The translations under genes and the position numbers were made by a program. The notes under the pieces were generated by a model. It ran no database searches. It was not told where the DNA came from and saw only the letters and a program-made list of their open reading frames with translations. From NCBI GenBank assembly GCA_965248925.1, contig CBDFLE010000006.1, positions 2,304,001 through 2,368,000 of the forward strand: a stretch of 64,000 nt of DNA. Reading direction: 5' to 3'. Position 1 is the first letter of the stretch. Each line of letters starts with the position of its first letter. Below are positions 20,189-47,453 of the stretch, one piece after another. This stretch comes from Candidatus Multivoradales bacterium (GTDB taxonomy: Bacteria; Acidobacteriota; Thermoanaerobaculia; Multivoradales; J023).

Positions 20189-20214
20189 AAAAAGGGCGCC
20201 CCGATGGGCGCCCC
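20186..20214. terminator. Intrinsic terminator-like hairpin between convergent units
   Basis: AAAAAAGGGCGCCC-CGAT-GGGCGCCCC; gives a U-tract on the minus strand. Confidence 0.65.
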
Positions 20215-30814: not shown

Positions 30815-31426
30815 CTACTCTTCCTGCCGACGACGATAAAGGGTCTTCAGACCTTCACCCGCGCGCTCGATCTGACCCGCTTCAATGCACCGAGTAAGCG
30901 CCGCCCGCAGCGCCGCCCGACCTTTGCCGGTACTCTTCACTAGCTGACTCAAGGTCGCACTGCCACCCAGAGAGACCAACGCCGCGTCCAGAGAATGGGC
31001 CTTGGCAGCGGCAGGGGTGGCGGCGCTAGCTTTGGTTCTCTTCTTGCGGCTCCGCGGCTGCTTGGGTTGAGCGGCCTCAGGTTGCTGCGCCGGCAACTCT
31101 GGCCGAGACCAGCCGCAAATCTCGCGCAAATGCAACCGCAGGTGGCGCGGCAAACACTCAGAGCTGGCTTGCTGACCAGCCAGGTAGCTATCGATCAACC
31201 GCTCGCTGATCTGCTCCGCTGAACGCTGGCCCGACTCCATCACTTCGCCTCTTTCGAGGATCTCCGGCGCTTGCTGGCGTACTGAAACCAAGGTGTAGCG
31301 AAACAGGCACACCGGCTTCATCGATCGCCCTCCAGATCGCCGCCGCTGCGCGCCGAGCCAGTCGATCAGCCGGCCAACGACTCCGTCAAATCCTCGACCC
31401 CATTCGCCTAGTGGATTCTCGTTCAT
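30815..31426 (-). CDS. Hypothetical protein, paralog of 32636-33100, with C-terminal winged-helix-like domain
   Basis: ATGA coupling; V.L..Y..VS.....E.LE core; basic linker; GGSATLSQLVKSTG...LRAAL......GQIER.G....T.Y. Confidence 0.72.
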   Translation of the reverse strand: MNENPLGEWGRGFDGVVGRLIDWLGAQRRRSGGRSMKPVCLFRYTLVSVRQQAPEILERGEVMESGQRSAEQISERLIDSYLAGQQASSECLPRHLRLHLREICGWSRPELPAQQPEAAQPKQPRSRKKRTKASAATPAAAKAHSLDAALVSLGGSATLSQLVKSTGKGRAALRAALTRCIEAGQIERAGEGLKTLYRRRQEE

Positions 31427-32607
31427 AAATTCTCCCCGAAATCACCGCCAGTGCCTTCGAGATCAAACAGCACGCCCGGACCAAGACTGGAAAGCTCAGC
31501 GAGCCGAGCCAATTTCGACGCCACCGGCTCCAGCACCCACTGACGCCAGCGGCGGGCCGGCGGGCCGGCGGCCGGCTGATATGCAAGAAAACTCTCCAAC
31601 AACGCTTCTCGACCCACCACATAGGCCCACAGCGACAACGCCGAGGCAATCCCACACCGCGTCGCCTTTTGCAGGTCGGGTGGGAGCTGCAAGAGCTGTG
31701 CGTCAAGCTGATCTAGCAGCTCGGCCAGCACCGCCGGCGCGGTGAGGTTGACCAACGTAGTCGCCCAGAACAAACCCGACAAGGCGTTCGCTCGCGCCAC
31801 CTCTGCGGGCGCCTTCGCGGTGCCGGCCAAGGCGCTGCCGGTCAGCCGCAAAGCCTCGTCAAAAGCCGCTTTGCCGGACCCCGGTAGCAAGCGGCGGGGG
31901 CTGAAATAGAGCCCGCGGCCGAGCCCATGCCAGAAAGTCCCTCGCCGGGCCGGCAGTTCGGCGGCCAGGGTCGCGTCCAGGCGAGTGATAGCGGCGGGCG
32001 CCAAGCCGATAACGATCAACCCCAGGGCCTCGAACACAGCTCGGCTATAACCCGGCCGCGAGCTAGTTCGGCAGACCTGCACCAAATCGCGCAAGGCCAT
32101 CGCGCCGGCTGGCGACCGAAGATCGTCCAAGCGCCGCCGTGCCAGCGCCAACCCCATGCCGGTGTGCAAGGGCAGCAGCTCACCGGCAGTGGCTATCTCG
32201 TTGTCGACCTGGCGCAGCCCGACACCGGCCATGCCGAGCTGAAAACCCAAGCCCTCCAAGACCCAAAGAGCGCGCCACGGGGGCAAGCGCCGGCTCGCCG
32301 CCACCTGCCGCGCCAATCCCGAAGTCCCGGCGATGGCCTGCTCGGCAAAACGGAAATCCTCGAAAGCCAGCAGCTTGTTACCGAGTTCGCTCAGATCGAC
32401 GGCCGCCCGGCCACCGACCCATGGACCGGCGGCCAGCACCGAACCCCGCAGACCGACCAGAGCCGAGCGCAGCATTCCCCGTGGCAGATCCCCTAGCGCC
32501 AGCGGACGGTCGCCACGCAGCGCCGCCAGCATCGAGCTGGTCTGTTCGAGCCCGAGTTTCGACATCGACGCCGAAAATTTAGCCACCGCGGTGAAAAGCT
32601 GCTGCAT
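31423..32607 (-). CDS. DUF1702/UnbL-like helical protein (copy 2)
   Basis: ALW..EGLG, LHTGMGLALA, FEALG, FWHGLGRGLYF.P, TLVNL; paralog of 34747-36045. Start ATG 32607 inferred from the shared N-terminal motif. Family call is tentative. Confidence 0.65.
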   Translation of the reverse strand: MQQLFTAVAKFSASMSKLGLEQTSSMLAALRGDRPLALGDLPRGMLRSALVGLRGSVLAAGPWVGGRAAVDLSELGNKLLAFEDFRFAEQAIAGTSGLARQVAASRRLPPWRALWVLEGLGFQLGMAGVGLRQVDNEIATAGELLPLHTGMGLALARRRLDDLRSPAGAMALRDLVQVCRTSSRPGYSRAVFEALGLIVIGLAPAAITRLDATLAAELPARRGTFWHGLGRGLYFSPRRLLPGSGKAAFDEALRLTGSALAGTAKAPAEVARANALSGLFWATTLVNLTAPAVLAELLDQLDAQLLQLPPDLQKATRCGIASALSLWAYVVGREALLESFLAYQPAAGPPARRWRQWVLEPVASKLARLAELSSLGPGVLFDLEGTGGDFGENL

Positions 32608-32635
32608 CAGTTCTTTGCTCGCAAGGTCCAGAATC

Positions 32636-33100
32636 TCAGTCTTGCTCCGCTGACCAGCGATCGAGAACTTGAAAGCAAACCCGCAGGAACTCTCGGTCCG
32701 CCGGCTCGATCTGCTGTTTGCCACCGCGCTGCAAGTAGTCGGCGATACGCCACGCGGCGAAGGCTTCGCGGCTCATGCTGCGGGCCACTAGAAGTTGCTC
32801 GCTCTCCAGCACCCGCTCGCGGCCGCTGTGGATCGACACCACCGCATACTCCACCAGCTTGACCATTGAATCGGCGAGATCTTGGGCTGCGCTGACTCCG
32901 GAACTGCCAGTGCCAACCGGGATCAGGCCACCCGCCAGCCGGCCCGAGACGGTGTCGTAGCTCTCTCCTGCCAGGCCGTGGAACCCACGGGCCGCTTGGG
33001 CAAACATCTCACTGCCGGCGGCGAAGGCATCCACCGGCATCAGCGCCAGCCGACCACAGCGGCTCAGTATTCGACCAAAACCCGAATTCAGCTCGCTCAT
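32636..33100 (-). CDS. Hypothetical protein
   Basis: GGAG RBS, in operon, paralogous to 30815-31426. Confidence 0.75.
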   Translation of the reverse strand: MSELNSGFGRILSRCGRLALMPVDAFAAGSEMFAQAARGFHGLAGESYDTVSGRLAGGLIPVGTGSSGVSAAQDLADSMVKLVEYAVVSIHSGRERVLESEQLLVARSMSREAFAAWRIADYLQRGGKQQIEPADREFLRVCFQVLDRWSAEQD

Positions 33101-33148: not shown

Positions 33149-34750
33149 TCAATCCGCTACCGCTAACACCCTGAGCAAGAAACCACCCAACAGCAGGAAG
33201 GTCACCGCCGCACCGGTCTCCACCCAACGACTCTCCAAGCCGGCCCGCAGCAGGGCCGGAGTAGCTAGCACCACGGCCAACATCATCGCCCCCAAGGCGC
33301 CGGCTACCGTCCAACGATCACGGTGGCCCTCGGCCACAAGGCCGCGTTCGAGAGGCGGCTGAAAGCCTTCAGGACTCTCACTCAGGTCCAACAGCAGATC
33401 GATTTTCTGCGGTAGATCGAGCAACAAATCCGTACCCTGTTCGAGCATCGGCGCTAGCCGCCGCGGTGAGCTGAGGGTACGAAACTGGCTCCACCCGGCC
33501 AACCATTGCAAGCTGTTGAGCGCTTCGCCCAGAGTGTCTCGCTGCGGATCTAGTCGATGAGCCAAGCTCGCCGACTCCACCAGTCCGCGAAAGAAGACCC
33601 GCAGGTCGGCCCGACCGCGGTAGCCAGCTTCGCGCGCCAACCGCCAATGCAGCATCGCATGCTCGGCCAAGCTGTCGCCACGCCGCGACCACGCCCCATC
33701 ACGAAAAGGAACTGCTTGCCGCAGGCGCAAGCGCAGCTCGGCGGCGGTGCTCGTGCGGCGAGTCGCCACCATCTCGCGCAGCAAGTAGTTGGCGGCCCGC
33801 TCCGGCTGGTGCGCGGCGGCGGCCCGCAGGTAATTCCACAGCCGCACTTGCGAGGTCGCCGGCAGGCTGGCGAAGGTGCCATGACGAATTCCCCAGCGAC
33901 CGTCTGCCAGCACCACCCACTCGGCAGTGACCGGGAAGGCTCGCGCCACCAAAGCTAGTTGCAACCAAACCAGGCTCAAGCGGCGCGACAACTCAGCCTG
34001 CTCGGCAGCACCAAGGTCAGCTTGCGGGTCGTCCCATCGCCGGCCGGCGAGATAAGTCGTCGACAGCACTCGGCTCGAACATAGGGCTGGCAAGACAGCG
34101 GCCACCCGCACCAGGTCGGAGCCCTCGGTGGCGCTAGCCAGAACTTCCAGATGTTCGGCCTGGCGCGCCAGGTCGATCCGCGCTTCCAGGTGACAGCGGA
34201 AATCCTCGACCAGCCGAGAGAAATCAAGCTCCGCCGGCCAACGCACTCGCTCAAGCGGTGCCAACCGCTCGCCGAGAGCGGTCAGCTCGCTGTCGGCACC
34301 GGGACGCACCACCCGCAATACGACCGCGCTACCATCGGCCAACACCCCGCGGTGAGCCTGCAACAGCCAATCGCTGGCCACCGGGTCGGAATCGAGATCG
34401 GCAAAGGCCTCGGCCGCCGCCACTCCCAGCTCATCGCCGAGGCGCTCGCGAATGCTCGCCCAGGAAGCTGGCGGGCAATCCCCGCGAACCGCGCCCAAGC
34501 GCAGGCACTCGCGAGCCGAGAAGTAGTCACCGCGCGAGCCGAGATAGGCGGCAAAGGCCGCCAAGGGCCCACCAAACTCAGCCAACACCGTGGCCAATCC
34601 AGCGACCAAATCTTCTCTCGACAGCCCCTCGCTCGATCGCCGGAGCAGGCGCCGCGGACCGCGCGCCAAGCCCAGCTCGAGCAGCCGCCGCTGCAACTCC
34701 GAGACCCGCAGACGGCGGTGGTCTGAGAACCTGGCCCCGGCCCTGCTCAT
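33149..34750 (-). CDS. AarF/UbiB/ABC1-family pseudokinase, 2 C-terminal TMs
   Basis: ABC1 layout (ELG....F..D..PVAS...Q.H.G.L.DG..V..RV.RP) but KxGQ, HxD..N and DFG are absent. Confidence 0.8.
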   Translation of the reverse strand: MSRAGARFSDHRRLRVSELQRRLLELGLARGPRRLLRRSSEGLSREDLVAGLATVLAEFGGPLAAFAAYLGSRGDYFSARECLRLGAVRGDCPPASWASIRERLGDELGVAAAEAFADLDSDPVASDWLLQAHRGVLADGSAVVLRVVRPGADSELTALGERLAPLERVRWPAELDFSRLVEDFRCHLEARIDLARQAEHLEVLASATEGSDLVRVAAVLPALCSSRVLSTTYLAGRRWDDPQADLGAAEQAELSRRLSLVWLQLALVARAFPVTAEWVVLADGRWGIRHGTFASLPATSQVRLWNYLRAAAAHQPERAANYLLREMVATRRTSTAAELRLRLRQAVPFRDGAWSRRGDSLAEHAMLHWRLAREAGYRGRADLRVFFRGLVESASLAHRLDPQRDTLGEALNSLQWLAGWSQFRTLSSPRRLAPMLEQGTDLLLDLPQKIDLLLDLSESPEGFQPPLERGLVAEGHRDRWTVAGALGAMMLAVVLATPALLRAGLESRWVETGAAVTFLLLGGFLLRVLAVAD

Positions 34751-36045
34751 CGATCTTCCCCAGCCAACGTCGCGTAGCGGTCGGCAAGTTGGAGCTGGCC
34801 AGCGAGCGCCCGCTGACCGGGCTGACGGACGGCACGCTGCCAGAGGGCAGCCCGCGCGGCGTCGGCTGGCTGGTGGTCGAGAAAGGCGGCCAAATCGCTG
34901 TCCTCGGGGGTGATCTGCTGACGCATCACAAGCGACGCCAGCAGGCCCTCGTGGAAGGGGCCTTGGGCAAGCTGATCCTCCCCGTGGCAGAGCAATGCTT
35001 CTTCGAGCACCTGCGGTGTTCTTAAGTTGACCAAGGTGAAGGCATAACCGACCCCTGCCAGGGCGGCGGCGGTCTGGGTCCCCGCGGGAGATTCCTCTGC
35101 AACCATCGCCAACGCCTGGCCGAGAGAGCCGTAGCCCGGCACGAAGCTCACCGGCGCAAAGTAGATCGCGCGGCCAACTCCGTGCCAGAAGGTCTGCCGC
35201 AATCTCCCCTCGACGCGCTGTTCAAGCGCCCGATCAAGGCCTCCCAGGAGATCCGGGAAGAAGCAGCGAGCGACCAAACCCAGGGCCTCGAGAGCAGCTT
35301 CAAGATGGGCTTCGAGAGCACTCGCCTGACAAAGTCCCGCGAAGCGCTCGACAACGCTGGCGAACTCTGCCTGCGCCGAGTCTGGCCGCAAGTCAGCGAG
35401 CAAATGCTCAGCCACTGCCAGCCCAAGGCCGGCGTGAATGATCGGCAGCGTGTGGGCGGGCAGCAGATCGAGTTCAGCCGTGGCCAGCAGATCGGCGGTG
35501 GGACGGCGACAAGTCGCCGACTGGCGAACGCCCAGCAGCTCCACCTGGACAAAACCGTGGCTCAGCCCCTCGATCAACCACAGCGCCCGTCGGGGCGGCT
35601 GGCGGAGAGCGATCTCCACCCACCGCGGGAGACTAAAAGGCACCCCCCGCGGTGGCAGTCCGAGTTCGTCGGCAACCCCGCGCACCAACTTGAAGACTTC
35701 CACTTTGTTGCTCAGCTCGCGGCGCCGGGCGGCACCCACGGCGGCGGGACTAACGAAGCGCAGAGTGTCCAGCGAATGCCGCGCCAGCCGCTGCGCGCCT
35801 TGGCGCCAGGCCGCCGGATCCAGAGTATCCCAGGCCAATTCCAAACCCTCGTCCTGCAACGCCCCACCGGCCTGATATGCACCCTGCAACAAATCACCAA
35901 GCTGCCGCTGGGCTGTCCAGGTCAGCGCATCGAGCGACTCCCCAGGTGACATCGTCGCCGGCCGCAGCAGGCCGATAGCTCGCTCCGCGCCATAGAGCGA
36001 CGCCGCCCAGGAAAAACGCAGCATGGATTTGGCCAGGGTTTGCAC
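34747..36045 (-). CDS. DUF1702/UnbL-like helical protein (copy 1) with amphipathic N-domain
   Basis: ELSNK, ALW..EGL.H, IHAGLGLA.A, LEALG, FWHGVGRAIYFAP, TLVNL; N-terminus similar to 36063-36443. Family call is tentative. Confidence 0.68.
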   Translation of the reverse strand: MQTLAKSMLRFSWAASLYGAERAIGLLRPATMSPGESLDALTWTAQRQLGDLLQGAYQAGGALQDEGLELAWDTLDPAAWRQGAQRLARHSLDTLRFVSPAAVGAARRRELSNKVEVFKLVRGVADELGLPPRGVPFSLPRWVEIALRQPPRRALWLIEGLSHGFVQVELLGVRQSATCRRPTADLLATAELDLLPAHTLPIIHAGLGLAVAEHLLADLRPDSAQAEFASVVERFAGLCQASALEAHLEAALEALGLVARCFFPDLLGGLDRALEQRVEGRLRQTFWHGVGRAIYFAPVSFVPGYGSLGQALAMVAEESPAGTQTAAALAGVGYAFTLVNLRTPQVLEEALLCHGEDQLAQGPFHEGLLASLVMRQQITPEDSDLAAFLDHQPADAARAALWQRAVRQPGQRALAGQLQLADRYATLAGEDR

Positions 36046-36062: not shown

Positions 36063-36443
36063 CTAGCTGTCGGCGGCTGCAGCGACTGTTTCGCTCGCCG
36101 CCCCAACTTCGGCCTTGTTGCTCAGCGTACTCCAAGAACGATCCACGGTTTCCCAGCCACGTTTCATCGCCTCCCCCAGAACTTCACCGGGCTTCGACCA
36201 CTCGCCACTAGCCAGGTCGGTGAGGGCGTTGACCATCCCCCCTTGGAACTCGTCGCCCGCCCGGTAGACATTGCGCACCGTCTCGCCCATCTGGCCCTCG
36301 GCGGCGTGGCTGAGGGCATCGAAGGCCGAAGTGGACTTACCCCAGCCTTCACCCGGCAACAGCAGTTGACTCGCCTGGCGTAGGCCGAGCATCGACATCG
36401 CCCAGGAGAAGCGGAACATAGATTTGGTCAGATCGCGCATCAT
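36063..36443 (-). CDS. Small amphipathic helical protein
   Basis: AAGGA RBS; KSM.RFSWA.S..G motif shared with neighbouring proteins. Confidence 0.8.
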   Translation of the reverse strand: MMRDLTKSMFRFSWAMSMLGLRQASQLLLPGEGWGKSTSAFDALSHAAEGQMGETVRNVYRAGDEFQGGMVNALTDLASGEWSKPGEVLGEAMKRGWETVDRSWSTLSNKAEVGAASETVAAAADS

Positions 36444-36466: not shown

Positions 36467-38188
36467 TCATCTCACCAACACCCACAGGCGGCACAATAAG
36501 ACCACCGCGGCAGCGCCGGCAAAGGTCAGCTGTGCGGTCCACAGATTAGCGCCCAGCGCTGGCGGCGGCGGGCTGAGGGTCAAGGCCAGGGTGGCCAGGA
36601 GCAGCGCCGCGACGAGCCCGGCCACCCGCCATCGCATCGCCGCCCGGTCGGCCGGGGGGCCTGGCTTGGCGCTCAGCGGCAGTTCACCGGCGGTCAGCCG
36701 GTCGAGCAAGCGGCTGGCGCGGCGCGGCCCATGCTCAAACAACTTGCCGCTAGCGGCGGAGAAGTCGAGCAGACGCTGGGCGGTAAAGCGCTCGCGGCGA
36801 CCCTGCCAAACCAGATATCGGGCACAAGACTTGGCCAAATAAGCACCCACCTCGAACGTCGGCTCGAAGCGAGTGATCAAGCCATCGATGGCAATCGCCG
36901 AACGGATGTACTTGACAATTGCCCGCTCCGGTAGCACACCGGTCTTGCGCGACAGGGTAAGCATCTCACCCATGATGCGGGTGAAGTTGGCGTGCAAGCG
37001 CTGCGCTTGGCCGCTGTCGGGCTGGTAGTCCTCGTACCAACCCGCGGCCAGCCGGTCGAGGCCGACGCGAAAACCCTGCAAGTCGGACTTCGGGCCAATG
37101 CTGGTGACTTGCAAGAAGTCATGGTTGAGGCGCTGCATATCGCCTTCGGCCAGGGCCAAGGTCATCGCCACCAGGTGGCGCCGAGAATAGCGACTCATCA
37201 GGCCGGTGATGCCAAAGTCGACATAGCCCACCACGTTGTGGTCGAGAATCAGCAGATTCGCCGGATGCAGGTCGGCATGGTAGATACCGTTCTCAAAAGC
37301 ATCGCCAAGAAAGTTGTCGATGATGTTGGCGGCAAAACGCACCGGCTCGAAGCCGCGCTGAGCCAAGCGCTCGGCCAGCAGCGAGTCTCCCCGTTCGCGG
37401 CCGCGCAGGTATTCGAGCAAGGTGACGCCGTTAAGAAACTCCATCACCAAGATGCGCCGGGTGGTGAACTCCTCCCACACTCGCGGCACATGTTGCACCG
37501 GGTTGTCAGCGGCGTGAATAGCCAACCTCTCAGCGTACCGCGCCTCATTGCGGAAATCGATCTCCTCTTCGGTCCAAGCAATGAATTCGCTGGTTGGTTC
37601 CACCAGCCAATACAGGGGTCGCAAGCGCAACCATTGAATCAGCCGCACCACCGCCACCATCAGGCGAATATCGCTGCCGAAGTCCTGCTCGACATCGGGT
37701 CGCTGGATTTTCACCGCTACTTTTTGGCCGTCCAACCAAGCCACATGGACCTGCCCCACGGAGGCGGTGGCCAGCGGCTGGCGGTCGAAATCAGTAAAAA
37801 CTTCTTCGAGGCCCCGACCGTGTTCGGCGCGGAAGATCTCGTCCGCCAGGGTAAAAGAAAAGGGCTCGATGCGATCAAGCAGATTAAACAGTGCATTGCA
37901 GTATTCGAGCGAGATGATGTCGGGCTGCAGGGCCAGCATCTGACCGAACTTGATAAAGGTGCCGCCGATATCCTCAAGCACTTGACGCAAGCGATCTGGA
38001 GGCGCCAGGTCGCCGGCGGGCAAGCGCCGCGCCAGTCTCGGCCAACGCTCGAGCCGCTGGCCCAGGCCCAGCGACAGACCATGCCGAGCCGCCACCGCAA
38101 CTATGCGCAACAAGCGGCGCCCGCTCGACAACAGCAAACTTCCCCAGCCCAGTCGATCCCAGACTAGCCGGCGCCAGAGGAACTTCAT
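36467..38188 (-). CDS. AarF/UbiB/ABC1-family atypical kinase
   Basis: IKFGQ, ATASVGQVH, VAVKIQRP, EIDFRNEA, YHADLHPAN, VDFG; 2 C-terminal TMs. Confidence 0.93.
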   Translation of the reverse strand: MKFLWRRLVWDRLGWGSLLLSSGRRLLRIVAVAARHGLSLGLGQRLERWPRLARRLPAGDLAPPDRLRQVLEDIGGTFIKFGQMLALQPDIISLEYCNALFNLLDRIEPFSFTLADEIFRAEHGRGLEEVFTDFDRQPLATASVGQVHVAWLDGQKVAVKIQRPDVEQDFGSDIRLMVAVVRLIQWLRLRPLYWLVEPTSEFIAWTEEEIDFRNEARYAERLAIHAADNPVQHVPRVWEEFTTRRILVMEFLNGVTLLEYLRGRERGDSLLAERLAQRGFEPVRFAANIIDNFLGDAFENGIYHADLHPANLLILDHNVVGYVDFGITGLMSRYSRRHLVAMTLALAEGDMQRLNHDFLQVTSIGPKSDLQGFRVGLDRLAAGWYEDYQPDSGQAQRLHANFTRIMGEMLTLSRKTGVLPERAIVKYIRSAIAIDGLITRFEPTFEVGAYLAKSCARYLVWQGRRERFTAQRLLDFSAASGKLFEHGPRRASRLLDRLTAGELPLSAKPGPPADRAAMRWRVAGLVAALLLATLALTLSPPPPALGANLWTAQLTFAGAAAVVLLCRLWVLVR

Positions 38189-39849
38189 TCAGCAGGCCCC
38201 GCGGAGTCCCAGAGATTGCCAAAGAAGATCGACCGACGTTGCTCCCTCATCTCGACCAAGGTGCTGGCGATACGCTCCTTGATCTGCCGGCCCACCGCCC
38301 GCACCACTGCCGGATCCTCGGCTGCTTCGGGGCCATATTGGAGTTCGACATGGACCGGTTCGAGAAATTGAGTATGCCACTTGGAAGGCAGCGGCACACT
38401 GCCCATGGTGGGCGTGATCGGCAAGAACGGCCATTCACTGAGACGTTTGAACCAGGCCCATTCGATGCGGCCGAAAATAGGAAAGATCTCCGCCGAACCA
38501 ACAGTCACGAAGGGCACGATCGGCACCTGATGGCGAAGCGCCATCTTGACGTACTCGTGACGCGCAAAACGGCGCAAGGTGTAAGCATCGCGATACATGC
38601 AGAAAGCACCGCGGATGCCCTCTGGGAAGACCCCGATCAGATGACCGCGAGAGAGCGCCCAATCAGCGTTGTCATGCGACGCATGGATGCCGCCGAGCTT
38701 GATGATGTAAGGCGCCAGGAAGGGGAACTTCGCCAACGCCGGGTGGATCAGAAAGCGCGGATAGCGCCCCAGCTGGCGCGCTAGCAGGTGTAGCAGCATC
38801 ACCGCATCCCAGGGCTGATGACCGCGGTGAACCCCCACCAACACCGCCGCTCCCTGCCGTGGTACATGCTTCAGACCCCGATGCTCGATGCGCCACCAGG
38901 CGTCGTGCAAGAAACGAAAGAGAGTGCGCCCGAGACGGTCGATGTAAACCCGGTCCATGCCAAAGGGGTCAAATTCGTCGTCTTGATGCGGAACAACAGT
39001 CGCCGGCAGAGATGTACCCTGAGACTTCGCCGCCGCCAAAGCGCGCAACGCGGCGGCGCTGGTGTATCGAGGCTCGAAGCCGAGCTGCTCAGCGATCTTG
39101 ACCGCTGACACCGTTGCTGGATAGCACCGGCCATCGAGCTGGCCCTTGGGCACTAGCCAGCGCACCAGCCAAGACGGCAGCGGCAAGCGGCGCACCCCCG
39201 CCAGAGCCAACGCGCGCCGCTGCGGCACCACCGCCGAGGGAGCAACATTCAACACGCCGAGCGGGCACTCCTCGAACACTCGCCGCAGAGCCGACGCCAG
39301 ATCATCCGGCGCCAGCACCTGCAGCGACGGATCGAAACCGATGGGCGTTACCGCCACCGCGCCACTGAACAGGCGACTCGCCCCATCCTCACCTCCCGGC
39401 ACCGCGGTAGGCGCCGCCCGCAGCACCGTCAGGCGCTTCTCGCCCACCACCTCGAGCGCCCGAGCCTCAAGCCGACGCCAGCTCGTGGCCATTGGATTTT
39501 CCTGCCGAGAAGTGCCACCGAAAACCTCGTCGACCATTCCAGGATGGTGGTGGCTCGACTGATGAATCGCACTGCTGGCCAGTACGATCAGCCGACATGC
39601 CGACAAGCGGCCGAGGTGATCGAGCAAACTGCCAGCCGCGGCCGCGGCGAGGTCTCCATCGGCATGCTGGGAGGCCGCCCAGACCACCGTATCGACCCCT
39701 TCGCCGGGAGCCAGAAGTTGGTCCAAAGAACGGTCGTCGAGAGACGCTCCGCTACAGCTGGCCACCGCTGGGCTAACGGCCAGAGCAGCCACCAAAAGCT
39801 CACGCAGGGGGGCATGGGGCGCGCAGACCAAGACCTTGGCAGACATCAC
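38185..39849 (-). CDS. Degenerate NAD-epimerase/SDR domain fused to a PlsC/LPLAT acyltransferase
   Basis: C-terminal DPFG.D, H(RGHQPW)D, VFPEG, VPIVP..VG.AE, PLPSKW. The N-terminal SDR-like part lacks GxxGxxG and YxxxK. Confidence 0.85.
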   Translation of the reverse strand: MMSAKVLVCAPHAPLRELLVAALAVSPAVASCSGASLDDRSLDQLLAPGEGVDTVVWAASQHADGDLAAAAAGSLLDHLGRLSACRLIVLASSAIHQSSHHHPGMVDEVFGGTSRQENPMATSWRRLEARALEVVGEKRLTVLRAAPTAVPGGEDGASRLFSGAVAVTPIGFDPSLQVLAPDDLASALRRVFEECPLGVLNVAPSAVVPQRRALALAGVRRLPLPSWLVRWLVPKGQLDGRCYPATVSAVKIAEQLGFEPRYTSAAALRALAAAKSQGTSLPATVVPHQDDEFDPFGMDRVYIDRLGRTLFRFLHDAWWRIEHRGLKHVPRQGAAVLVGVHRGHQPWDAVMLLHLLARQLGRYPRFLIHPALAKFPFLAPYIIKLGGIHASHDNADWALSRGHLIGVFPEGIRGAFCMYRDAYTLRRFARHEYVKMALRHQVPIVPFVTVGSAEIFPIFGRIEWAWFKRLSEWPFLPITPTMGSVPLPSKWHTQFLEPVHVELQYGPEAAEDPAVVRAVGRQIKERIASTLVEMREQRRSIFFGNLWDSAGPAE

Positions 39850-39894: not shown

Positions 39895-41442
39895 TCACCA
39901 GCCGGCGGCTACCGCCGCTCGCCCGGCCACTTCGTCGAGCGGCCAGGGCACTGAAGAGGTCGCACCGGCGACCTCGGCGGCGACCTGTTGGGCGGAGACG
40001 ATCACCGGTGTAATGCCACCTCCCGGCCGGGTCCAATGGCCGACCAGATAGAGATTCTTGATCGGCGATTCGATTCCCGGCCGGCGGCTGCCGAGTTGAT
40101 CGGGCGACATTTCCCAACCCAGCATGGCGCCAAACTTATTGCCGGTAAATCGCCAAGAAGTCAGGGCTGAGGCACTCACTTGGACAACGATCTTGCGCGA
40201 GATCCCCGGCACCAGATCTTCGAGGTGCGAGACCACGTAGTCTTCCACCTCGCGCTTGTGCGCCGGCCAATCGGTGATCTCTCGGTAGTCGAGCTGCTGC
40301 ACTTTTTGCAGGATCACCACCTGCCCGCCAACCGGCGCCATCCGTGGCTCGTAGACCGTCGGCACGAAAACCTTGCAGCGCAAACCCCCGTCGCCCACTT
40401 GATCAGGGTCCCAGGAATTCCAGTAGTAACCCTGCACCGCCTCCAGCACCTCGGGTTCGATATCGCGCAAGCCGATGTGGGTTAAGAAGCAAGGAAAACT
40501 CGGACGCAGGGATCGCACTTGCTTCAGGTAAGCCGGGTCCAGCACCCCGGCGGGTAGCAACCGCTCTAGGGTTTGCAGCATGTCGGCGTTGGAAATCACC
40601 GTTCGCGCCAGTACCCGCCGCTGGCCCTGCAAAGGGCCGCGCAGAGTCTTCAACTCGACACCCTGAGCGCGGCCATCTCGCACCAAGATGTGCTCGGCGC
40701 GGGTACTCATCAGAATGTGGCCACCGCGAGCCTCGAAACAGCGCGCCAGCTCGTCGGCGAAAGCCTGCGATCCCAGTACCGGATAGTAGTTGCCGAGAAA
40801 GTAGGACAACCGCAACATCGAGTCGAAGACAAACGAAGTCCGGGCCGGCGGCGAACCCCAATGCGGACAATCAGCGGTCAACAGCAGCTTCAACTTCCGG
40901 TCGGTGAAATGCCGATCGAGCACCTGGCGCACAGAAAGATCTCGGTAACGCTCCAGACGCGGCGTCTCACGACCCCTGAAATAGGCCAGCAAGCCGAGTA
41001 AGTAGGCCTCGCGAACCTCGCTGAAAAATTTATCGAGGTTGGCCTGCTCGGCGGGGAATGCCTGCTTGACCATGGCCAGGTAGGTGTCGAAATCCCCCGG
41101 TACCTCGAACTTGCTGCCATCGGGAAAGTGAAAAGTATCGACCGGGTCCATTTTCACCCAGCCGGTCTCCACCCCGAGCTCGCCGAGCAACTTGCCAGTC
41201 AAGGTGAGGGGATTGCCCAGCAGCGGATAGAAGTGGGTAGCGGCATCAAAGGTGTAGCCCTTGCGCCGGAAGGTGCTGCAATAGCCACCCACCATGTAGT
41301 GCTGCTCGACCAGCAGCACTTTCAGACCTTCGCGGGCCAGCAAGTTGGCGGTGACCAAGCCGCCGACCCCGGCACCGATGATCACCGTGTCGTAGGCCGG
41401 CTCCGGGGCCTCGCGGCGCAGCCCTCTGAACAAGCGTTTCAC
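39895..41442 (-). CDS. Phytoene-desaturase / retinol-saturase family FAD oxidoreductase
   Basis: IGAGVGGL...VEQH..VGG....F.RKGY.FD; C-terminal LYLVG.WT.PGGG. Confidence 0.9.
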   Translation of the reverse strand: MKRLFRGLRREAPEPAYDTVIIGAGVGGLVTANLLAREGLKVLLVEQHYMVGGYCSTFRRKGYTFDAATHFYPLLGNPLTLTGKLLGELGVETGWVKMDPVDTFHFPDGSKFEVPGDFDTYLAMVKQAFPAEQANLDKFFSEVREAYLLGLLAYFRGRETPRLERYRDLSVRQVLDRHFTDRKLKLLLTADCPHWGSPPARTSFVFDSMLRLSYFLGNYYPVLGSQAFADELARCFEARGGHILMSTRAEHILVRDGRAQGVELKTLRGPLQGQRRVLARTVISNADMLQTLERLLPAGVLDPAYLKQVRSLRPSFPCFLTHIGLRDIEPEVLEAVQGYYWNSWDPDQVGDGGLRCKVFVPTVYEPRMAPVGGQVVILQKVQQLDYREITDWPAHKREVEDYVVSHLEDLVPGISRKIVVQVSASALTSWRFTGNKFGAMLGWEMSPDQLGSRRPGIESPIKNLYLVGHWTRPGGGITPVIVSAQQVAAEVAGATSSVPWPLDEVAGRAAVAAGW

Positions 41443-42704
41443 CGCTCTTCCTCGGCCTCCGGCTCGATCTCGGGCTCGGGGGGATTGCGACCATAGGTTT
41501 CGTGCGCGACCACGAACTCGCCGCTGCCGATGGCGCCGCCCATCGACAACTCACCTGCCAGAATCGTCGCAGCGAAAATCTCAGCCAACCGCAGGGCATC
41601 CCCCGTCCCCTCGCAGCCGAGCATCGCCAGGCACTCGCGGCTGGTCCCGAGGCCGGTGCCGCCGCCGACCGTGGCCACCGACAGAGAGGGCAAGGTCACG
41701 CTGGCGTACAACCCGCCGTCGGCAGTGAGTTCGAAATTGGTAATGCCGACCGCCGAGTTGGCGACATTGGCGACGTCTTGACCGCAAGCGATGTAGAGCG
41801 CGGTCAAACCGTTGGCGTAATGGCCGTTGTAGCCTAGAGCACCCGCCTGTAGATGGCCAAGAACGGTGTGATGCCACATATGCACCAGTTGCTCGGGCAA
41901 GAGGTGCAGGACCGATTTCACCACCTGTCGCGGCAACCGCGCTCCGGCCACCACTTTCTTGCCCTTACCCCCCGCCAGTACCGCGCCGCTGGCGCGCTTC
42001 TCCGAGTTGTAGCCGCTAAAAACGTAGTACCGCTCGCTACCGAGGTTGCTGGCAATCCACTGGCAGATCGCTTCCACTGCCTTGACGATCATATTCATGC
42101 CCTGGGCGTCGGCGGTATGAAAACGGCAGTTGACGATCACCTCCCGCCCCACCGGCAGACACTCCAGCGCTAACAAACGACCGTGGGAGGTCGTCGCTTC
42201 GGCCACCTGTCGCAAGTCGTCAAAAGCAGCCTCAACCCGAGCCGCGAAATCGTACGCTTCGGCCACGCCGGCGAGAAAGAAGACTGGTGCGACCCGGTTC
42301 TCGTCCAACCACACCCGGGTTACCGCACCGCCGGCCCGGGTCAGGGCAACCATTCCTCGCTCATAAGAGCGCACCAAGGCCCCTTCGGTGGTTGCCAGCG
42401 GGACGTAGAACTCCCCCTTTGCGTGCTCGCCCCTTAGCCGCAAAGGGCCAGCGACGCCGAGGGGCATCTGGACCGCGCCGATGGGGTTCTCGATATTGCC
42501 GCGAAACTCCTCGCTGGGCAGGCTCGAGCGACCGACATGCGACAGTTGGGTGTCGGTGCGCTGCTCCACCCAAGCCCGGCGGCGAGCCACCAGATCAGCG
42601 CTGTAGCCTTGGTCCTTATAACGTGGTACCAAGCGGATACGCTGCCGCTCAGGCTCTACCAGAACCGGGCGCGCGGGTGCCTCTGTAGGCGAGCTTCTGG
42701 ACAT
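41439..42704 (-). CDS. Class I HMG-CoA reductase homologue
   Basis: NIEN.IG, VPLATTEGAL, DAQGMNM, GQD.A, VGGGT, AGELS and C-terminal catalytic H (AHETYGR). ATG 42704 is coupled to the upstream stop. Confidence 0.92.
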   Translation of the reverse strand: MSRSSPTEAPARPVLVEPERQRIRLVPRYKDQGYSADLVARRRAWVEQRTDTQLSHVGRSSLPSEEFRGNIENPIGAVQMPLGVAGPLRLRGEHAKGEFYVPLATTEGALVRSYERGMVALTRAGGAVTRVWLDENRVAPVFFLAGVAEAYDFAARVEAAFDDLRQVAEATTSHGRLLALECLPVGREVIVNCRFHTADAQGMNMIVKAVEAICQWIASNLGSERYYVFSGYNSEKRASGAVLAGGKGKKVVAGARLPRQVVKSVLHLLPEQLVHMWHHTVLGHLQAGALGYNGHYANGLTALYIACGQDVANVANSAVGITNFELTADGGLYASVTLPSLSVATVGGGTGLGTSRECLAMLGCEGTGDALRLAEIFAATILAGELSMGGAIGSGEFVVAHETYGRNPPEPEIEPEAEEER

Positions 42705-42705
42705 C

Positions 42706-44019
42706 TCAAGAACCCCCGGTAGTAGGTTCCCCGGCCGCCACACGGGCCAAGCCCGCACCACGTTCGAGCACCAAGGCGGCGATGTTGCCATCGAGTCCGA
42801 CAGTATCGACCAAGCCCAATCGCAAGTCGGCCACGGGCGCCGGCGAGGTCAGTGGCGCCAGACACCAGCGAGACAGCTCCTCCTCGAGGCCAGCGATACT
42901 CGGCACCAAACCATCCAGCATGGCGCCCAACAGGGCCACCACTTGCAATGCGCCGGCGGCGCCGAAGGTTTCGCCGAGAATCGACTTGCTGGCCATCACC
43001 GGCAGTTTGCCGGCGTGTTCGCCAAACGCCGCCACCAGTCCCGCGGCCTCGTTCAGGTCGCCCCGCGGACTGCCGTTGGCCGAGGCACTGACTAGGTCAA
43101 TCTGCGCCGGCTCGAGCCCGGCATCGGCCAAGGCAGTGGTGATGGCATAGCATAAAGCGGCGCTGGCGGACTCTGGCTGCTGACCACGGGAGAGGTCATA
43201 ACAACTGGCATGGCCGCGAATCTCAGCCAAGATGGTGGCCCCGCGGCGTTCGGCGAGGGAGGCTTCCTCGAGCATCAGCAGGGCGGCGCCTTCACCAGCG
43301 GCGAAACCGTTGCGACGGCCATCGAAGGGCACGGCACAAGCCGGTTGGCCATTCGTCGCGGCAGCCAACATGCCCGCTTGGTCGAAGCCGCAGAAAGACT
43401 CGAAACACAATTCTTCGGCACCACCGGCGAGCAGCATCTCGGCGCGACCGGAGCGAATCAGGTCGGCACCCTGGGCGATCGCCTGCAAACCCGCCGTGGT
43501 GCCGCCGGTGAAAGTCGAGTTGACCCCGCGCAGACCGTGCCAGATCGCTGCCTGGCCCGCCGCCGCGTTGATCACCGTATTGGCGAACACCAGCGGTTTG
43601 GCATAGTTCGGCCCGGCGGTCTGTGCCCGCACATCGAATTCAGAGATGGTGTGCACACTGCCAAACATCGTCCCCAGCACCAATCCAAGTTCATGCTCGG
43701 CCCGCGCCTCAACGCTCCAACCGCTGGCGGCGAGAGCCAGCTGGGCAGCCACTACGGTCAGTCGCCCGGTACGGTCCAGCGGTCGCAGATTGACCTTGCC
43801 GAGATACTCCAGCGGCGCGAAATCGCGAATCTCGGCACCGAGCGCGGTCGACAAGGACGAGGTATCGAACATCTCCACCGCCGCCAAACCGCTGCACCCC
43901 TGGCGTTGAGCCGCCCACAAGGCCACCGGTGAGTCGCCCACCGCCGACAGCATCCCCACCCCGGTGACCACCACCCGCCGCTCACCTCCTGCCTCCGCTA
44001 GGCCGTTCGCCCTACTCAT
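42706..44019 (-). CDS. Non-catalytic ketosynthase / chain-length factor
   Basis: KS fold; triad replaced: AAC to GGT, SAHG to SASA, GHT to GET. Confidence 0.88.
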   Translation of the reverse strand: MSRANGLAEAGGERRVVVTGVGMLSAVGDSPVALWAAQRQGCSGLAAVEMFDTSSLSTALGAEIRDFAPLEYLGKVNLRPLDRTGRLTVVAAQLALAASGWSVEARAEHELGLVLGTMFGSVHTISEFDVRAQTAGPNYAKPLVFANTVINAAAGQAAIWHGLRGVNSTFTGGTTAGLQAIAQGADLIRSGRAEMLLAGGAEELCFESFCGFDQAGMLAAATNGQPACAVPFDGRRNGFAAGEGAALLMLEEASLAERRGATILAEIRGHASCYDLSRGQQPESASAALCYAITTALADAGLEPAQIDLVSASANGSPRGDLNEAAGLVAAFGEHAGKLPVMASKSILGETFGAAGALQVVALLGAMLDGLVPSIAGLEEELSRWCLAPLTSPAPVADLRLGLVDTVGLDGNIAALVLERGAGLARVAAGEPTTGGS

Positions 44020-45233
44020 CCGGCATACCGCCGGAAAAGCACCGAGGCATTGTTGCCACCAAAGGCATAGGCGTTGTTCATCGCCACCTCGACCGCTAGT
44101 TGGCGCGCCTCGTTGGGTACGCAGTCGAGTTCACACTGCGGATCAGGCTCGGAAAAATTCATGGTGGGCGGGATCTCGCTCTGGTCGATCGCCAAACAGC
44201 AGATAGCGCTCTCGATAGCCGAGGCAGCGCCCATGGTGTGGCCGATCATCGATTTCACCGAACTGATCGGCAGCCGCGCGAGGCCATCACCAAAGACTCG
44301 CTGCACCGCCAAAGTTTCGAGGCGGTCGTTGGTCGGTGTGCCAGTACCGTGGGCGCTGACGTAGCTGACCGCCGCCGGCTCGATACCACTAGTCGCCAAA
44401 GCCTGCTCCATGGCGCGGGCGGCACCATCGCCCTCGGGATGGGCAGCGGTCATGTGATGGGCGTCGCAGGAGAGGCCAAAGCCAGCCATCTCAGCGTAGA
44501 TCCGCGCCCCCCGACGCCGCGCGCGGTCGAGAGTCTCGAGCACCAACACCGCCGCCCCCTCGCCCGGGATCATCCCCTTGCGATGGAGGTCAAACGGCTG
44601 GCAGATCTCCGGTGCGATCGCCCCGAGGCGGGCAAAACCGGTGTAGGTGATGCGCGAGAAAGAGTCGGCTCCGCCGGCCAACATGACCTCGGCGCGACCG
44701 GCGCGCAGCGCATCGAAAGCATAGGCCATGGCGTAGTTGCCGGCCGCGCAGGCGGCGGGGATCATCGCATTGATGCCGCCGAAGCCGACTTCGACCGCGA
44801 CCTGGCCGGCGATCACATGACAGGGATAAGCGTGGGCAAACCGAGGGCCGAGCTGATCGAGGCTGTCGGCCATCATGCGATCGTCGAAATGCTCGACCTC
44901 GCGCGGCTCACCCGAAGTAGTGCCCATCACCACACCTGCTCGATGAGGATCCGCGGGGCGCTCCAGGCCGGCATCTTCGACCGCCTCGTGGGCAGCGCAG
45001 ATCGCCAGTTGGGAAGCGCGGCCAACCTGTGTCGGATCCAGTAGTCGCAGGGCCAGCGCAGGGTCAAAACCCTGAATCTCGGCACCCAGCTTGGCCCGAT
45101 GCTTGCTTGTGTCGAACGAGGTCACGGCACTGAAGCCACTGCAGCCAGCGAGCAGCTGGCGCCAGCTCTGATCGCGGTCGGTGCCCACGGGCGTAACCGC
45201 ACCGATGCCGGTGACGACGACCCGTGGCAACAT
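44016..45233 (-). CDS. Type II beta-ketoacyl-ACP synthase (FabF-like KS-alpha)
   Basis: AACAAG, SAHGTGT..ND, KSMIGHTMGA, FGGNN; intact Cys-His-His. Confidence 0.95.
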   Translation of the reverse strand: MLPRVVVTGIGAVTPVGTDRDQSWRQLLAGCSGFSAVTSFDTSKHRAKLGAEIQGFDPALALRLLDPTQVGRASQLAICAAHEAVEDAGLERPADPHRAGVVMGTTSGEPREVEHFDDRMMADSLDQLGPRFAHAYPCHVIAGQVAVEVGFGGINAMIPAACAAGNYAMAYAFDALRAGRAEVMLAGGADSFSRITYTGFARLGAIAPEICQPFDLHRKGMIPGEGAAVLVLETLDRARRRGARIYAEMAGFGLSCDAHHMTAAHPEGDGAARAMEQALATSGIEPAAVSYVSAHGTGTPTNDRLETLAVQRVFGDGLARLPISSVKSMIGHTMGAASAIESAICCLAIDQSEIPPTMNFSEPDPQCELDCVPNEARQLAVEVAMNNAYAFGGNNASVLFRRYAG

Positions 45234-45234
45234 C

Positions 45235-45513
45235 TCAGGCTACTTCCTCGGCGGCGCCCACGTCGAGATGCTCCAGCACCAGGTCGACCGAATCCTGCAC
45301 CGTGCGCAACTCCTGTAAGCGCTCTTCCGGCACCCCGAGCTTGAACTCGAAATCGACGTCGACCCCGATCTCCATCAAGGACAGAGAATCCAATTCCAAA
45401 TCATCGATAAAAGAAGCATTGTCGGCGATCTCCGCCGGCTCGATGCTAGTGACATTGGAGATGATCTCCTTGATCTTGGCCCGAATCTCCGGGATCTTAT
45501 CTGTGACAGCCAT
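45235..45513 (-). CDS. Acyl carrier protein
   Basis: Acidic 92 aa; DLELDSL phosphopantetheine site. Confidence 0.95.
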   Translation of the reverse strand: MAVTDKIPEIRAKIKEIISNVTSIEPAEIADNASFIDDLELDSLSLMEIGVDVDFEFKLGVPEERLQELRTVQDSVDLVLEHLDVGAAEEVA

Positions 45514-45746: not shown

Positions 45747-46484
45747 CTACCTTGCCGCCGGCCAACCCGGTAGGGACTGCTCCATCAGACCGAGTGCCAG
45801 AGCGCGCCGAATCGCTCCGCGGCGCTGCCCGACACCGAGCTTGTCGAGGATCTTGTGAACATGATTCTTCACCGTTGGCAGGCTGATCGCCAGCCGTTGA
45901 GCGATTTCCTTGTTGCGCAAACCTCCGCCGATTAGCCTTAGCACCTGATCCTCCCTTGGCGTCAGCCGCACCACCACCTGCTCACGGGATTTCACCGGCA
46001 ACTGCTCAGCCAGCTCAGAGATGCGACTGAGCACGCTAGCCGCCAGTCGCGGCGTACACGGTGGCCGGTTGGCGAGCACATCGGCAATCGCCTGGCGCAA
46101 CTCAGCCAATCCAGCGGCGGCAGGCAAATGCCCACTGGCCCCCTCTTCAATCAGCGCCAGCCCCTCGCGCTCGCCGTCGACGCCCAACACCAGCACTTTG
46201 GCGCGAGGATACTGCCGCCGAGCCCAGCGGGTCGCGACGCGGGTCTGGCCCGCGCCGCCGAGGGCATCGATCAGCACCACCTTCGGCACGTTATTCGGCA
46301 CATTGTTCGGCACAGAATTCGCCGCCGAGCCCGGCTCCGCAACACATCCATCAGCGTCCGGTGCAGCTATTGTCCGCAAGCAGGCGGTGGCGCCAAACGT
46401 GGCCACCAAAGCCTGCGCCACCAAGGGTGAGGGGTGGACGAGCCACACCTCCGGGCGGTGGCCATTGGCGGCCACGTCCCTCAC
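45747..46484 (-). CDS. LuxR-family regulator with atypical receiver
   Basis: LTPRE...NKEIAQRL.IS..TVKNHVH.IL.KL; GTGA coupling at 46481-46484; acidic DD pocket missing. Confidence 0.88.
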   Translation of the reverse strand: MRDVAANGHRPEVWLVHPSPLVAQALVATFGATACLRTIAAPDADGCVAEPGSAANSVPNNVPNNVPKVVLIDALGGAGQTRVATRWARRQYPRAKVLVLGVDGEREGLALIEEGASGHLPAAAGLAELRQAIADVLANRPPCTPRLAASVLSRISELAEQLPVKSREQVVVRLTPREDQVLRLIGGGLRNKEIAQRLAISLPTVKNHVHKILDKLGVGQRRGAIRRALALGLMEQSLPGWPAAR

Positions 46485-47170
46485 CCGGCCTCCCGCACCA
46501 AGCGATGGCGACGATCCCTGATCCAACCATGACGATAGGCATGGCGCACCGCCGCGCCGCGATCGCCAACCTCGAGCTTCTCGAAAATGTGATGCACATG
46601 GTTCTTGACCGTGTAGACCGAGAGGTTGAGCTGCTCGGCGATCTGCCGGTTGCTCGAATCATCGGCGATCAGCTGCAAGATCTCGATCTCGCGCGGGGTC
46701 AGCTTGAAGACCTCGGCGCGGTCGTGCTCTCGGCGTTGTCGCGCCACGTCGGCCAAGCGGGTGAACAGTGAATCGGCGATATCGGTCGAACAAAGCACCT
46801 CGCCTTGCAGCACCCGGTCGAGGGTGTCCACCAGCTTCCCCCAGTGGTTTTCCTTACCCACGAAAGCGTCTACGCCGGCCTCGACACAACGCAGAATCGC
46901 CCGTTGATGCAGCGGTAAACCAAGGACCACGACCTTCGGTGCCGGCTCCATTTGGCGCGTCTCGCGAACCAGACAGCCGAGGCGCTCCTTGGCTCTGTTG
47001 ATATCGATCAGCAACAAGTCCGGCGGCTCGGCGCGCACCGCGGCCAGCGCAGATTCCGGCCGCTCGGCAACCGCCACCGAGAAGCGAGGGCCCGAAGAAA
47101 GATGAGCTGCCAACGCCTCCCGCGCCACCCCATGACAGCTGTAGAGCAGAATCCGCGACCGTCGGCTCAT
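46481..47170 (-). CDS. LuxR-family regulator with atypical receiver
   Basis: LTPRE.EIL...SNRQIAEQL.LS..TVKNHVH; beta1 ends YSCH instead of DD. Start uncertain (47170-47224). Confidence 0.9.
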   Translation of the reverse strand: MSRRSRILLYSCHGVAREALAAHLSSGPRFSVAVAERPESALAAVRAEPPDLLLIDINRAKERLGCLVRETRQMEPAPKVVVLGLPLHQRAILRCVEAGVDAFVGKENHWGKLVDTLDRVLQGEVLCSTDIADSLFTRLADVARQRREHDRAEVFKLTPREIEILQLIADDSSNRQIAEQLNLSVYTVKNHVHHIFEKLEVGDRGAAVRHAYRHGWIRDRRHRLVREAG

Positions 47171-47453
47171 CCGCCGTTCTCCCGTCAAACAAGACATCCA
47201 CCCGCCCGGTTCCGCAGCCATCAAGCGGCTCGGGCGGCAGCAAATGTCCCTGCTGCTGAATCTGAATAGCTAAAGCGATCGAGCTGAGATTAGCATATTG
47301 CCGAGCCGGCAAACCAAGCCGCCGAATGGTTTGCACCGACCGGCGCAGGATGACTGAAATTGACCAGCCGCAGAGGTTTCTACCCTCGGCAGCCGACGGC
47401 CAAGAGACTCTGAGCTAGGAACGTCGGCCGTTCTTGTGGTGAGGGCGCAGAGA

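Follow-up and report, generated by a model that had tools for sequence, protein, structure and literature searches.

Homologs of class-I HMG-CoA reductase (HMGR) are not all devoted to the mevalonate pathway. The published account of FcrA (Grossi et al. 2025, ISME J, PMC11948995) describes a class-I HMGR homolog that reduces acyl-CoA of at least C14 to the alcohol with NADPH, and that is reported not to reduce HMG-CoA or free aldehyde and not to be inhibited by simvastatin. According to the same account, FcrA keeps the four catalytic residues and carries three marker changes: Ser684 becomes Glu, the HMG-binding Lys (printed as "Lys795") becomes a small residue, and Leu862 becomes Trp. Part of the family has an N-terminal lipid-carrier domain and some members are fusions with an ACP (acyl carrier protein); the FcrA clade is put at 57–77% of the bacterial "class-I HMGRs," is often found without mevalonate genes, and may feed ether-lipid synthesis via PlsC-like proteins (PMC11948995). 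Such a conversion of an HMGR into an acyl reductase was already published in 2025. Here we analyze a class-I HMGR homolog of 421 residues, encoded on the minus strand at positions 41439–42704 of a stretch of 64,000 nucleotides (the window, C6:2304001–2368000) from the acidobacterium Candidatus Multivoradales bacterium. The gene lies in a cluster with a ketosynthase (KS), a chain length factor (CLF), and an ACP. It probably represents a new subfamily (the cluster type) of FcrA-type acyl-thioester reductases and would serve the product of the KS/CLF/ACP set, passing the alcohol to a co-encoded acyltransferase. The proposed assignment, as an NADPH-dependent enzyme of the FcrA kind, draws on PF00368, motifs, structure alignments, and trees. 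A literature search, with most subscription journals outside its coverage, found no description of the cluster-type subfamily or of the operon.

The host genome (7.98 Mb, 96.9% complete) has exactly two PF00368 genes, whose products are 41% identical. The other copy is a canonical HMGR that lies in an operon together with IDI-2, mevalonate kinase (MK), a decarboxylase resembling mevalonate diphosphate decarboxylase (MDD), and isopentenyl-phosphate kinase (IPK; the operon is at C6:812000–819000, L006); its neighbors on the two sides are IDI-2 and MK. A squalene/phytoene-synthase-like gene is also found inside this operon, on the opposite strand. The only match for HMG-CoA synthase (HMGS) in the genome is outside the operon, at C6:4429661, and the only MDD match is at C6:812984; MK matches are at C6:815403 and, as a weak match to the MK family (38 bits), at C6:2644770. 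This genome-wide search places no HMGS, MK, or MDD match within the window, in agreement with the preliminary description, which had reported neither HMG-CoA synthase nor mevalonate kinases there. DXR and IspH, of the methylerythritol phosphate pathway, are not found in the genome at its 96.9% completeness. Hence, the host runs the mevalonate pathway with its own canonical reductase, and the cluster-type copy is a spare paralog. What the preliminary description had regarded as damaging to its proposal, a complete mevalonate pathway lacking any other HMGR, is thus not what the genome contains. The host seems to rely on the mevalonate route, possibly an alternative one.

The distribution of the cluster type in other genomes shows the same independence. 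Close relatives number in the thousands at 65–76% identity, and the few named ones are mostly labelled Acidobacteriota. One protein, P0003 (89% identical to the 421-residue enzyme), is filed in nr under the fish Nerophis lumbriciformis and is probably bacterial contamination of the assembly. A scan of one genome per species gave 322 confirmed loci, the best 80 of which were studied. On the acidobacterial side these belong to Thermoanaerobaculia, Pyrinomonadaceae/Blastocatellia, Vicinamibacteria, Holophagales, Terriglobia, and Bryobacteraceae; Latescibacterota, Poribacteria, Zixibacteria, Nitrospinota, Planctomycetota, and one deltaproteobacterial metagenome-assembled genome are also represented. 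Isoprenoid genes were sought in a sample of 301 genomes of the host's phylum, in which the cluster type was defined by at least 55% identity and which contributed eight further loci; the sample coincides with one drawn around a Blastocatellia metagenome-assembled genome. In the resulting 88 loci, tblastn gives no match for MK, MDD, IPK, or IDI-2. Among the 301 genomes, an HMGR homolog is present in 47 and the cluster type in 8. The cluster-type gene is the only HMGR of G033 (99% complete), G100 (96%), G180 (93%), G215 (75%), and G301, and in all five DXR is present and an MDD match is absent. MDD is present in G005, G302, G303, and G304, each of which has a separate HMGR copy within ~2 kb of the MDD gene. 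A single HMGR is found in G305, where neither DXR nor MDD was detected, the completeness of this genome not being established. All five carriers examined from other phyla have DXR. In conclusion, the cluster-type HMGR is independent of the mevalonate pathway, and the annotation "hydroxymethylglutaryl-CoA reductase" within this clade is no evidence that the pathway exists. One acidobacterial genome, G266, has two cluster-type copies in different contexts (L094 and L095, 65% and 59% identical); a CrtI-like gene follows one of them, and the other genes of the window cluster were not detected beside the second.

Phylogenetic analysis separates the cluster type from canonical HMGRs. The trees include the 150 best representatives of clusters at 50% identity, the subfamily members, and sequences defined by their context. 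They have no class-II root, and FcrA is represented in them by PF25653-carrying homologs found beside wax ester synthase/diacylglycerol acyltransferase (WS/DGAT) genes, in place of the characterised sequences. The cluster type forms one clade with support 100 both in FastTree (23 of 162 rows) and in the quick IQ-TREE analysis under LG+G4 (13 of 78 rows). The rows with canonical motifs, including both copies from MVA (mevalonate) operons, form a separate clade (support 99 and 100, respectively), and a third, sister noncanonical clade carries PF25653 (HMG-CoA_red_N), with support 97 in both trees; the domain is present, for example, in L097 and L099. In this third clade a UbiB gene adjoins the HMGR in 11 of 22 loci. 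Beyond UbiB one finds a WS/DGAT in four loci (plus one weaker match on the other side) and a PlsC-type acyltransferase in four, and in one further locus a PlsC-type gene comes directly after the HMGR, with no UbiB. Between the cluster type and the canonical clade, 16 positions are fixed differently and 70 identically. Judged by its sequence, the window protein has the general signature of the neofunctionalised HMGR branch but is a variant of its own, in a distinct clade. The switch had been shown for one enzyme only, in 2025; this clade would add a structurally different version with no lipid-carrier domain and with other pocket residues. The FastTree analysis also contains a large clade of 52 rows (P0165–P0266) made of HMGR-like proteins of 800–1000 residues, in which LDLST replaces GELSL and a long additional region precedes or follows the domain.

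The catalytic residues of the window protein are kept and its HMG-binding pocket is altered. PF00368 (HMG-CoA_red) matches at 353.9 bits over residues 39–406, covering profile positions 2–368 of 368, so that ~38 residues stand ahead of the catalytic domain; PF25653, the N-terminal Lad domain, gives no match. The TIGR00533 score is 321.3 bits, for an equivalog cut-off of 441.8, and the genome's MVA-operon HMGR is likewise slightly below the cut-off (439.9 bits). The motifs are TTEG (residues 105–108), FSGYNSEKRASG (229–240), WHHTVLGH (277–284), CGQD (307–310), and VVAHE (398–402). The closest solved structure is 6hr7 (283 bits), presumably an archaeal class-I HMGR; human HMGR (1dq8) scores 182 bits. 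Residues were mapped by alignment to both structures, with roles as described in PMC7503714. Glu559, Lys691, Asp767, and His866 of the human enzyme are kept as E107, K236, D310, and H401, which are invariant in all 23 cluster-type rows, and Asn755 is kept too. The pocket changes are D690→E, K692→R, K735→H, L853→M, L862→F, and R590→V. Compared with SGNxCxDKK, the cis-loop (FSGYNSEKR) is one residue shorter and lacks the Asn and Cys of that motif. Both the retention of the catalytic Glu (TTEG), Lys, Asp (GQD), and His and the altered loop (SGYNSEKR) had been noted in the preliminary description, and the alignments agree. The description had also read His at the position of the carboxylate-binding Lys, and this stands for the window protein by structure alignment; it does not extend to the subfamily, where the K735 position has H in 14 rows, Q in 5, R in 2, W in 1, and K in 1. 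The invariant residues of the WHHTVLGH motif in the subfamily are W277, T280, G283, and H284.

Three positions summarize the relation between the clades. Position 862 is Leu in 11/11 canonical rows, Trp in 9/9 rows of the clade standing in for FcrA, and Phe in 21/23 cluster-type rows. Position 735 is Lys in 11/11 canonical rows, never Lys in the stand-in clade, and has lost its Lys in 22/23 cluster-type rows. At the position equivalent to Ser684, canonical rows have Ser (11/11), the stand-in clade has Glu (5), Ser (3), or Asp (1), and the cluster type has Phe (23/23) in an ungapped alignment, or Ser with a one-residue deletion in a gapped one. Two of the three FcrA marker changes are thus present in the window protein.

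The gene order around the HMGR is that of an operon. The open reading frame (ORF) at 41439–42791 contains an in-frame ATG at 42704, the start of the 421-residue protein. The stop codon (TGA, 42708–42706) of the CLF-like gene (42706–44019, minus strand, 437 residues) is followed by one base and then by this ATG, so the HMGR does lie directly behind the CLF, as had been stated. Next upstream, on the same strand, are a FabF-type KS of 405 residues with an active-site Cys (44016–45233) and a dedicated ACP of 92 residues with an LDSL motif (45235–45513). When the CLF is aligned to the KS, the Cys of the Cys-His-His triad is replaced by Thr and the two His by Ala and Glu; the upstream gene is therefore, as judged from these substitutions, a true CLF and catalytically dead. 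Among solved structures, the KS and the CLF score best against two different chains of PDB 9s5h (454 bits, with chain 9s5h_B, and 230 bits, respectively), an entry that presumably is the KS/CLF-like heterodimer of a ladderane-producing anammox bacterium described in bioRxiv 10.64898/2026.05.19.726425. On the downstream side, the HMGR stop overlaps, as GTGA, the GTG start of a FAD enzyme of the CrtI/phytoene-desaturase family (39895–41442, minus strand, 515 residues; best PDB match 4dgk, 91 bits). An acyltransferase of 554 residues (38185–39849) and a first UbiB/ABC1 atypical kinase of 573 residues, recognized by its domain match (36467–38188), follow on the minus strand.

This arrangement is conserved. 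Neighbors were mapped by tblastn with the window proteins (E ≤ 1e-8 and a query coverage of 50% or more), and the denominators are the loci, among the best 80, with enough flanking sequence. The CLF is within 500 bp upstream of the cluster-type HMGR in 63/75 loci, KS and CLF are both upstream in 55/65, and the ACP in 56/65. Downstream, the CrtI-like gene is found within 1.8 kb in 62/71 loci (L042, where it overlaps by one base, is scored as a miss), the acyltransferase in 43/53, and the first UbiB in 28/53. The common order is ACP-KS-CLF-HMGR-CrtI-acyltransferase-UbiB. In many loci one or two FG-GAP/ASPIC-UnbV genes stand between the CrtI-like gene and the acyltransferase (e.g., L021:12672–17713, L013:12482–15424). 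Among the eight extra loci of the phylum sample, three have ACP-KS-CLF upstream, three (G033, G100, and G180) have only HMGR-CrtI-acyltransferase-UbiB, one has HMGR and CrtI only, and one has the HMGR alone. Given these counts in the 80 and the eight loci, the steadiest partners of the cluster-type HMGR are the CrtI-like enzyme and the CLF.

Fusion proteins provide another line of evidence. A search for longer relatives found P0272 (869 residues) and P0273 (787 residues), each with a cluster-type HMGR domain behind a CLF-like one. Over 413 residues the CLF part shares 50% identity with the window CLF, and the HMGR part is 60–62% identical to the window HMGR. Both come from metagenome assemblies, where a sequencing error may have merged adjacent genes. 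In addition, at least 20 clusters of proteins of ~1000 residues (P0274–P0296) have an AMP-binding domain followed by an HMGR-like domain, and all of these fusions bear FcrA-type markers. A PP-binding domain is recorded in three of the clusters, and a Pfam scan of four gave the order AMP-PP-HMGR in P0277 only. The layout of the AMP-binding fusions is like that of a carboxylic-acid reductase, with the HMGR fold in place of the usual reductase domain of the short-chain dehydrogenase/reductase (SDR) type. Because a reductase of the AMP-PP-HMGR type would meet its substrate on the carrier protein, direct use of acyl-ACP by the window enzyme is, by analogy, plausible. The CLF–HMGR and AMP-binding–ACP–HMGR fusions suggest that HMGR-fold reductases can serve carrier-bound chains and, if they do, the fold would offer a new release domain for engineered fatty-alcohol pathways.

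The separate canonical HMGR, the five genomes with DXR, the lack of MVA genes in 88 loci, the FcrA-like pocket, and the fusions all argue for an acyl reductase. They favor the proposal of the preliminary description that the HMGR fold has been reused on acyl thioesters, as far as sequence comparison can speak for it. We infer the identity of the substrate, the alcohol product, and the roles of the neighboring genes as follows. The chemistry of HMGR would be unchanged, with two NADPH-dependent hydride transfers and catalysis by Glu, Lys, Asp, and His, by which a thioester becomes a primary alcohol via a bound hemithioacetal. The enzyme would act on a lipid acyl thioester and not on HMG-CoA. The KS/CLF pair would most likely assemble the acyl chain on the dedicated ACP, and the CrtI-family flavoenzyme would possibly desaturate, isomerise, or saturate it. 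The reductase would then turn the acyl-ACP, or an acyl-CoA derived from it, into a fatty alcohol, ACP and CoA being about equally probable as the carrier. Finally, the SDR-like/PlsC-type acyltransferase would use the fatty alcohol to form a lipid, either an ester or an ether, and proteins of the UbiB family would assist in handling the hydrophobic product. A WS/DGAT is encoded elsewhere in the genome (C6:1610326–1611726) and no reductase gene was found among the ORFs scanned around it, so the cluster-type enzyme might also serve wax-ester synthesis.

A more far-reaching version of this proposal is tentative, and on balance doubtful: the enzyme would act on an ACP-tethered chain, being the first free-standing enzyme of HMGR fold that releases the product of a type II KS/CLF system by reduction, and the operon would make an undescribed alcohol-derived lipid. 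If this is true, the ACP-KS-CLF-HMGR-CrtI-SDR/PlsC-UbiB operon would produce a new ester/ether lipid class in Acidobacteriota and several other phyla, and this lipid could be relevant to the aerobic synthesis of bacterial ether lipids, whose route is unresolved. In practical terms, the operon is a defined set of six to ten genes for co-expression toward a new lipid.

Several observations weigh against an FcrA-type enzyme that serves the KS/CLF/ACP product. The S684→Glu marker of FcrA is absent from the cluster type. The residues replacing K735 are not the small ones of FcrA, and D690→E and K692→R are conservative; hence the pocket may be partly polar and, to judge from these residues, may take a functionalised chain (3-hydroxy- or 3-oxoacyl) over a plain fatty acyl chain. 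The ORFs scanned in the cluster include no gene for a ketoreductase, a dehydratase, an enoyl reductase, or a thioesterase and none of the mevalonate pathway, and in the absence of the first three the chemistry of the chain is not fixed by the genes. Moreover, 12 of the 75 loci have no CLF directly upstream, and G033, G100, and G180 have HMGR-CrtI-acyltransferase-UbiB with no ACP, KS, or CLF nearby, so the coupling to the ACP is not universal.

In an alternative reading, a functionalised or short KS/CLF thioester, such as a 3-oxo- or 3-hydroxyacyl-ACP, would be reduced to a 1,3-diol-type product or a hydroxy-alcohol. With no ketoreductase, dehydratase, or enoyl reductase in the cluster, the KS would yield a 3-oxoacyl-ACP, barring further steps by housekeeping enzymes. 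The contacts to the HMG hydroxyl region are kept or conservatively replaced (E235 for D690, K236, R237 for K692, and N298), and the K735 position is still polar. However, hydrophobic bulk is gained, as in FcrA, through L862→Phe and through the Phe at position S684, the acyltransferase and UbiB neighbors are the same as in the wax-ester-type clade, and nothing direct favors any particular substrate. We consider this alternative unlikely.

An ordinary mevalonate-forming HMGR, either as a second isozyme or as a dedicated supply of mevalonate to the cluster, is very improbable. The host does use the mevalonate pathway, and a full-length PF00368 match at 354 bits, together with the retained catalytic tetrad and NADPH motifs, is what one would expect from such an enzyme. 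Yet a separate canonical copy occupies the MVA operon; K735, L862, and the S684 position have changed, among 16 positions fixed differently from the canonical clade; and the TIGR00533 score of 321 bits is under the 441.8 cut-off. In addition, five genomes with DXR and without an MDD match contain no HMGR other than the cluster type, no MVA gene is found in the 88 loci, and the related FcrA is reported to lack HMG-CoA reduction (PMC11948995). The preliminary description had allowed for either an aldehyde or an alcohol as product, and the analogy with FcrA favors the alcohol: a two-electron stop that releases an aldehyde for the CrtI-like or another enzyme is hardly to be expected in spite of the translationally coupled flavoenzyme downstream, as HMGR chemistry holds the hemithioacetal and aldehyde and proceeds to the alcohol, FcrA is described as giving the alcohol and not reducing free aldehyde (PMC11948995), and all four catalytic residues, including those of the second reduction, are invariant.

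The acyl-thioester reductase would work within a larger minus-strand gene set, which runs through two LuxR-type regulators, ACP, KS, CLF, HMGR, CrtI, acyltransferase, UbiB, and proteins of 126 and 432 residues, and then through a second UbiB, a 154-residue protein, a 433-residue paralog, two family-less proteins, and a halogenase-like flavoprotein. The LuxR-type regulators (45747–46526 and 46481–47224, minus strand) are 5′ of the ACP and recur upstream in many related loci. The C-terminal half of the acyltransferase is of the PlsC/DAGAT type, and its N-terminal half weakly resembles extended SDRs/epimerases. A Pfam Epimerase match is found in 9 of 14 homologs (best E 1.1e-5), the window's own copy not being among these, and the N-terminal half has profile matches in PDB only at E ~0.05; these are weak evidence for an SDR-like domain.

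The second UbiB/ABC1 atypical kinase (533 residues, also a domain match) is at 33149–34750, minus strand. On either side of it, on the same strand, are two conserved all-alpha proteins of 432 (34747–36045) and 433 residues (31423–32724), paralogs that are 34% identical, recur in related clusters, and match no Pfam family. The model of the 432-residue protein has a pLDDT of 81.8; nothing matches it in Foldseek at E ≤ 0.001, and VIA-align reaches a Z of 6.3 at best, over 55 residues, which leaves no fold to assign and no convincing PDB counterpart for either paralog. Its protein Atlas matches are only acidobacterial clusters without names. The small conserved protein of 126 residues (36063–36443, minus strand) has an N-terminus like that of the 432-residue protein, with a common KSMxRFSWA motif. 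A FAD-dependent halogenase/monooxygenase-like protein of 583 residues (27641–29392, minus strand) recurs in related loci, and a plus-strand FG-GAP/ASPIC-UnbV repeat gene (22804–25158) is a recurrent member of the neighborhood. A GAF histidine kinase and a LuxR response regulator are at 25192–27611. A few kb past the cluster, at 16372–21919, there are a GDSL lipase, an alpha/beta hydrolase, and a FadL-type outer-membrane transporter for hydrophobic compounds.

Among described gene clusters, a comparison can be made with Cluster I of anammox bacteria (KustE3603–3608), which has been proposed for ladderane lipids and is described as consisting of an ACP, FabZ, a KS, a triad-less KS partner, a phytoene-dehydrogenase homolog, and a B12 radical-SAM protein (bioRxiv 10.64898/2026.05.19.726425). 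Four of these six parts (the ACP, the FabF-like KS, the triad-less partner, and the phytoene-dehydrogenase homolog) are common to the window cluster, FabZ and the B12 radical-SAM protein are not, and, as far as that description goes, the HMGR homolog occurs only in the window cluster. The label of ladderane cluster was rejected, as neither a FabZ nor a radical-SAM domain was found in the window ORFs scanned. Nor did a link to anammox bacteria gain support: the only one of 301 sampled Planctomycetota genomes with the cluster-type HMGR was the starting carrier, in a sample that may hold no anammox genomes. Judging from PMC7298704, the window cluster is probably one of those that surveys by genome mining class as "ladderane" in organisms other than anammox bacteria. 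It joins the cluster type to a dedicated chain-building KS/CLF/ACP set, to which mining tools give the label "ladderane-like" and which has no known products beyond the anammox bacteria.

A second comparison is with ElbD of myxobacterial ether-lipid synthesis, which comprises FadD-ACP-FAR-PlsC (cited in PMC11948995). By this description, both systems have a carrier protein together with a reductase that converts a thioester to an alcohol and an acyltransferase of the PlsC type; the window acyltransferase would also have its SDR-like N-terminal half. Unlike ElbD, again by description, the window system has a reductase of HMGR fold rather than SDR fold, its functions are encoded by separate genes, and its chain would come from a KS/CLF pair instead of being activated by a ligase.

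With canonical class-I HMGR (EC 1.1.1.34), the window protein shares the fold, the catalytic residues, the NADPH motifs, and the tetramer-type architecture. It differs in the absence of Lys735, the shorter cis-loop, R590→V, and L862→F, and the cluster type is never found beside MVA genes. The resemblance to FcrA is closer. Both have the class-I fold with catalytic Glu, Lys, Asp, and His, the loss of Lys735, and an aromatic residue at Leu862; both are found in genomes that lack the mevalonate pathway or in addition to a canonical HMGR, and both have acyltransferase neighbors of the WS/DGAT or PlsC-like type. Nonetheless, the cluster type is distinguished from FcrA by the lack of the N-terminal Lad domain (PF25653), by Phe instead of Trp at L862 and His, Gln, or Arg instead of small residues at K735, and by a signature of its own (FSG[YF]xSEKRASG, WxxTxxGH, DENR[VI]xP, LVRSYERGM, and GEFVxAHE), and the window gene is translationally coupled to a KS/CLF/ACP set and to a CrtI-like enzyme.

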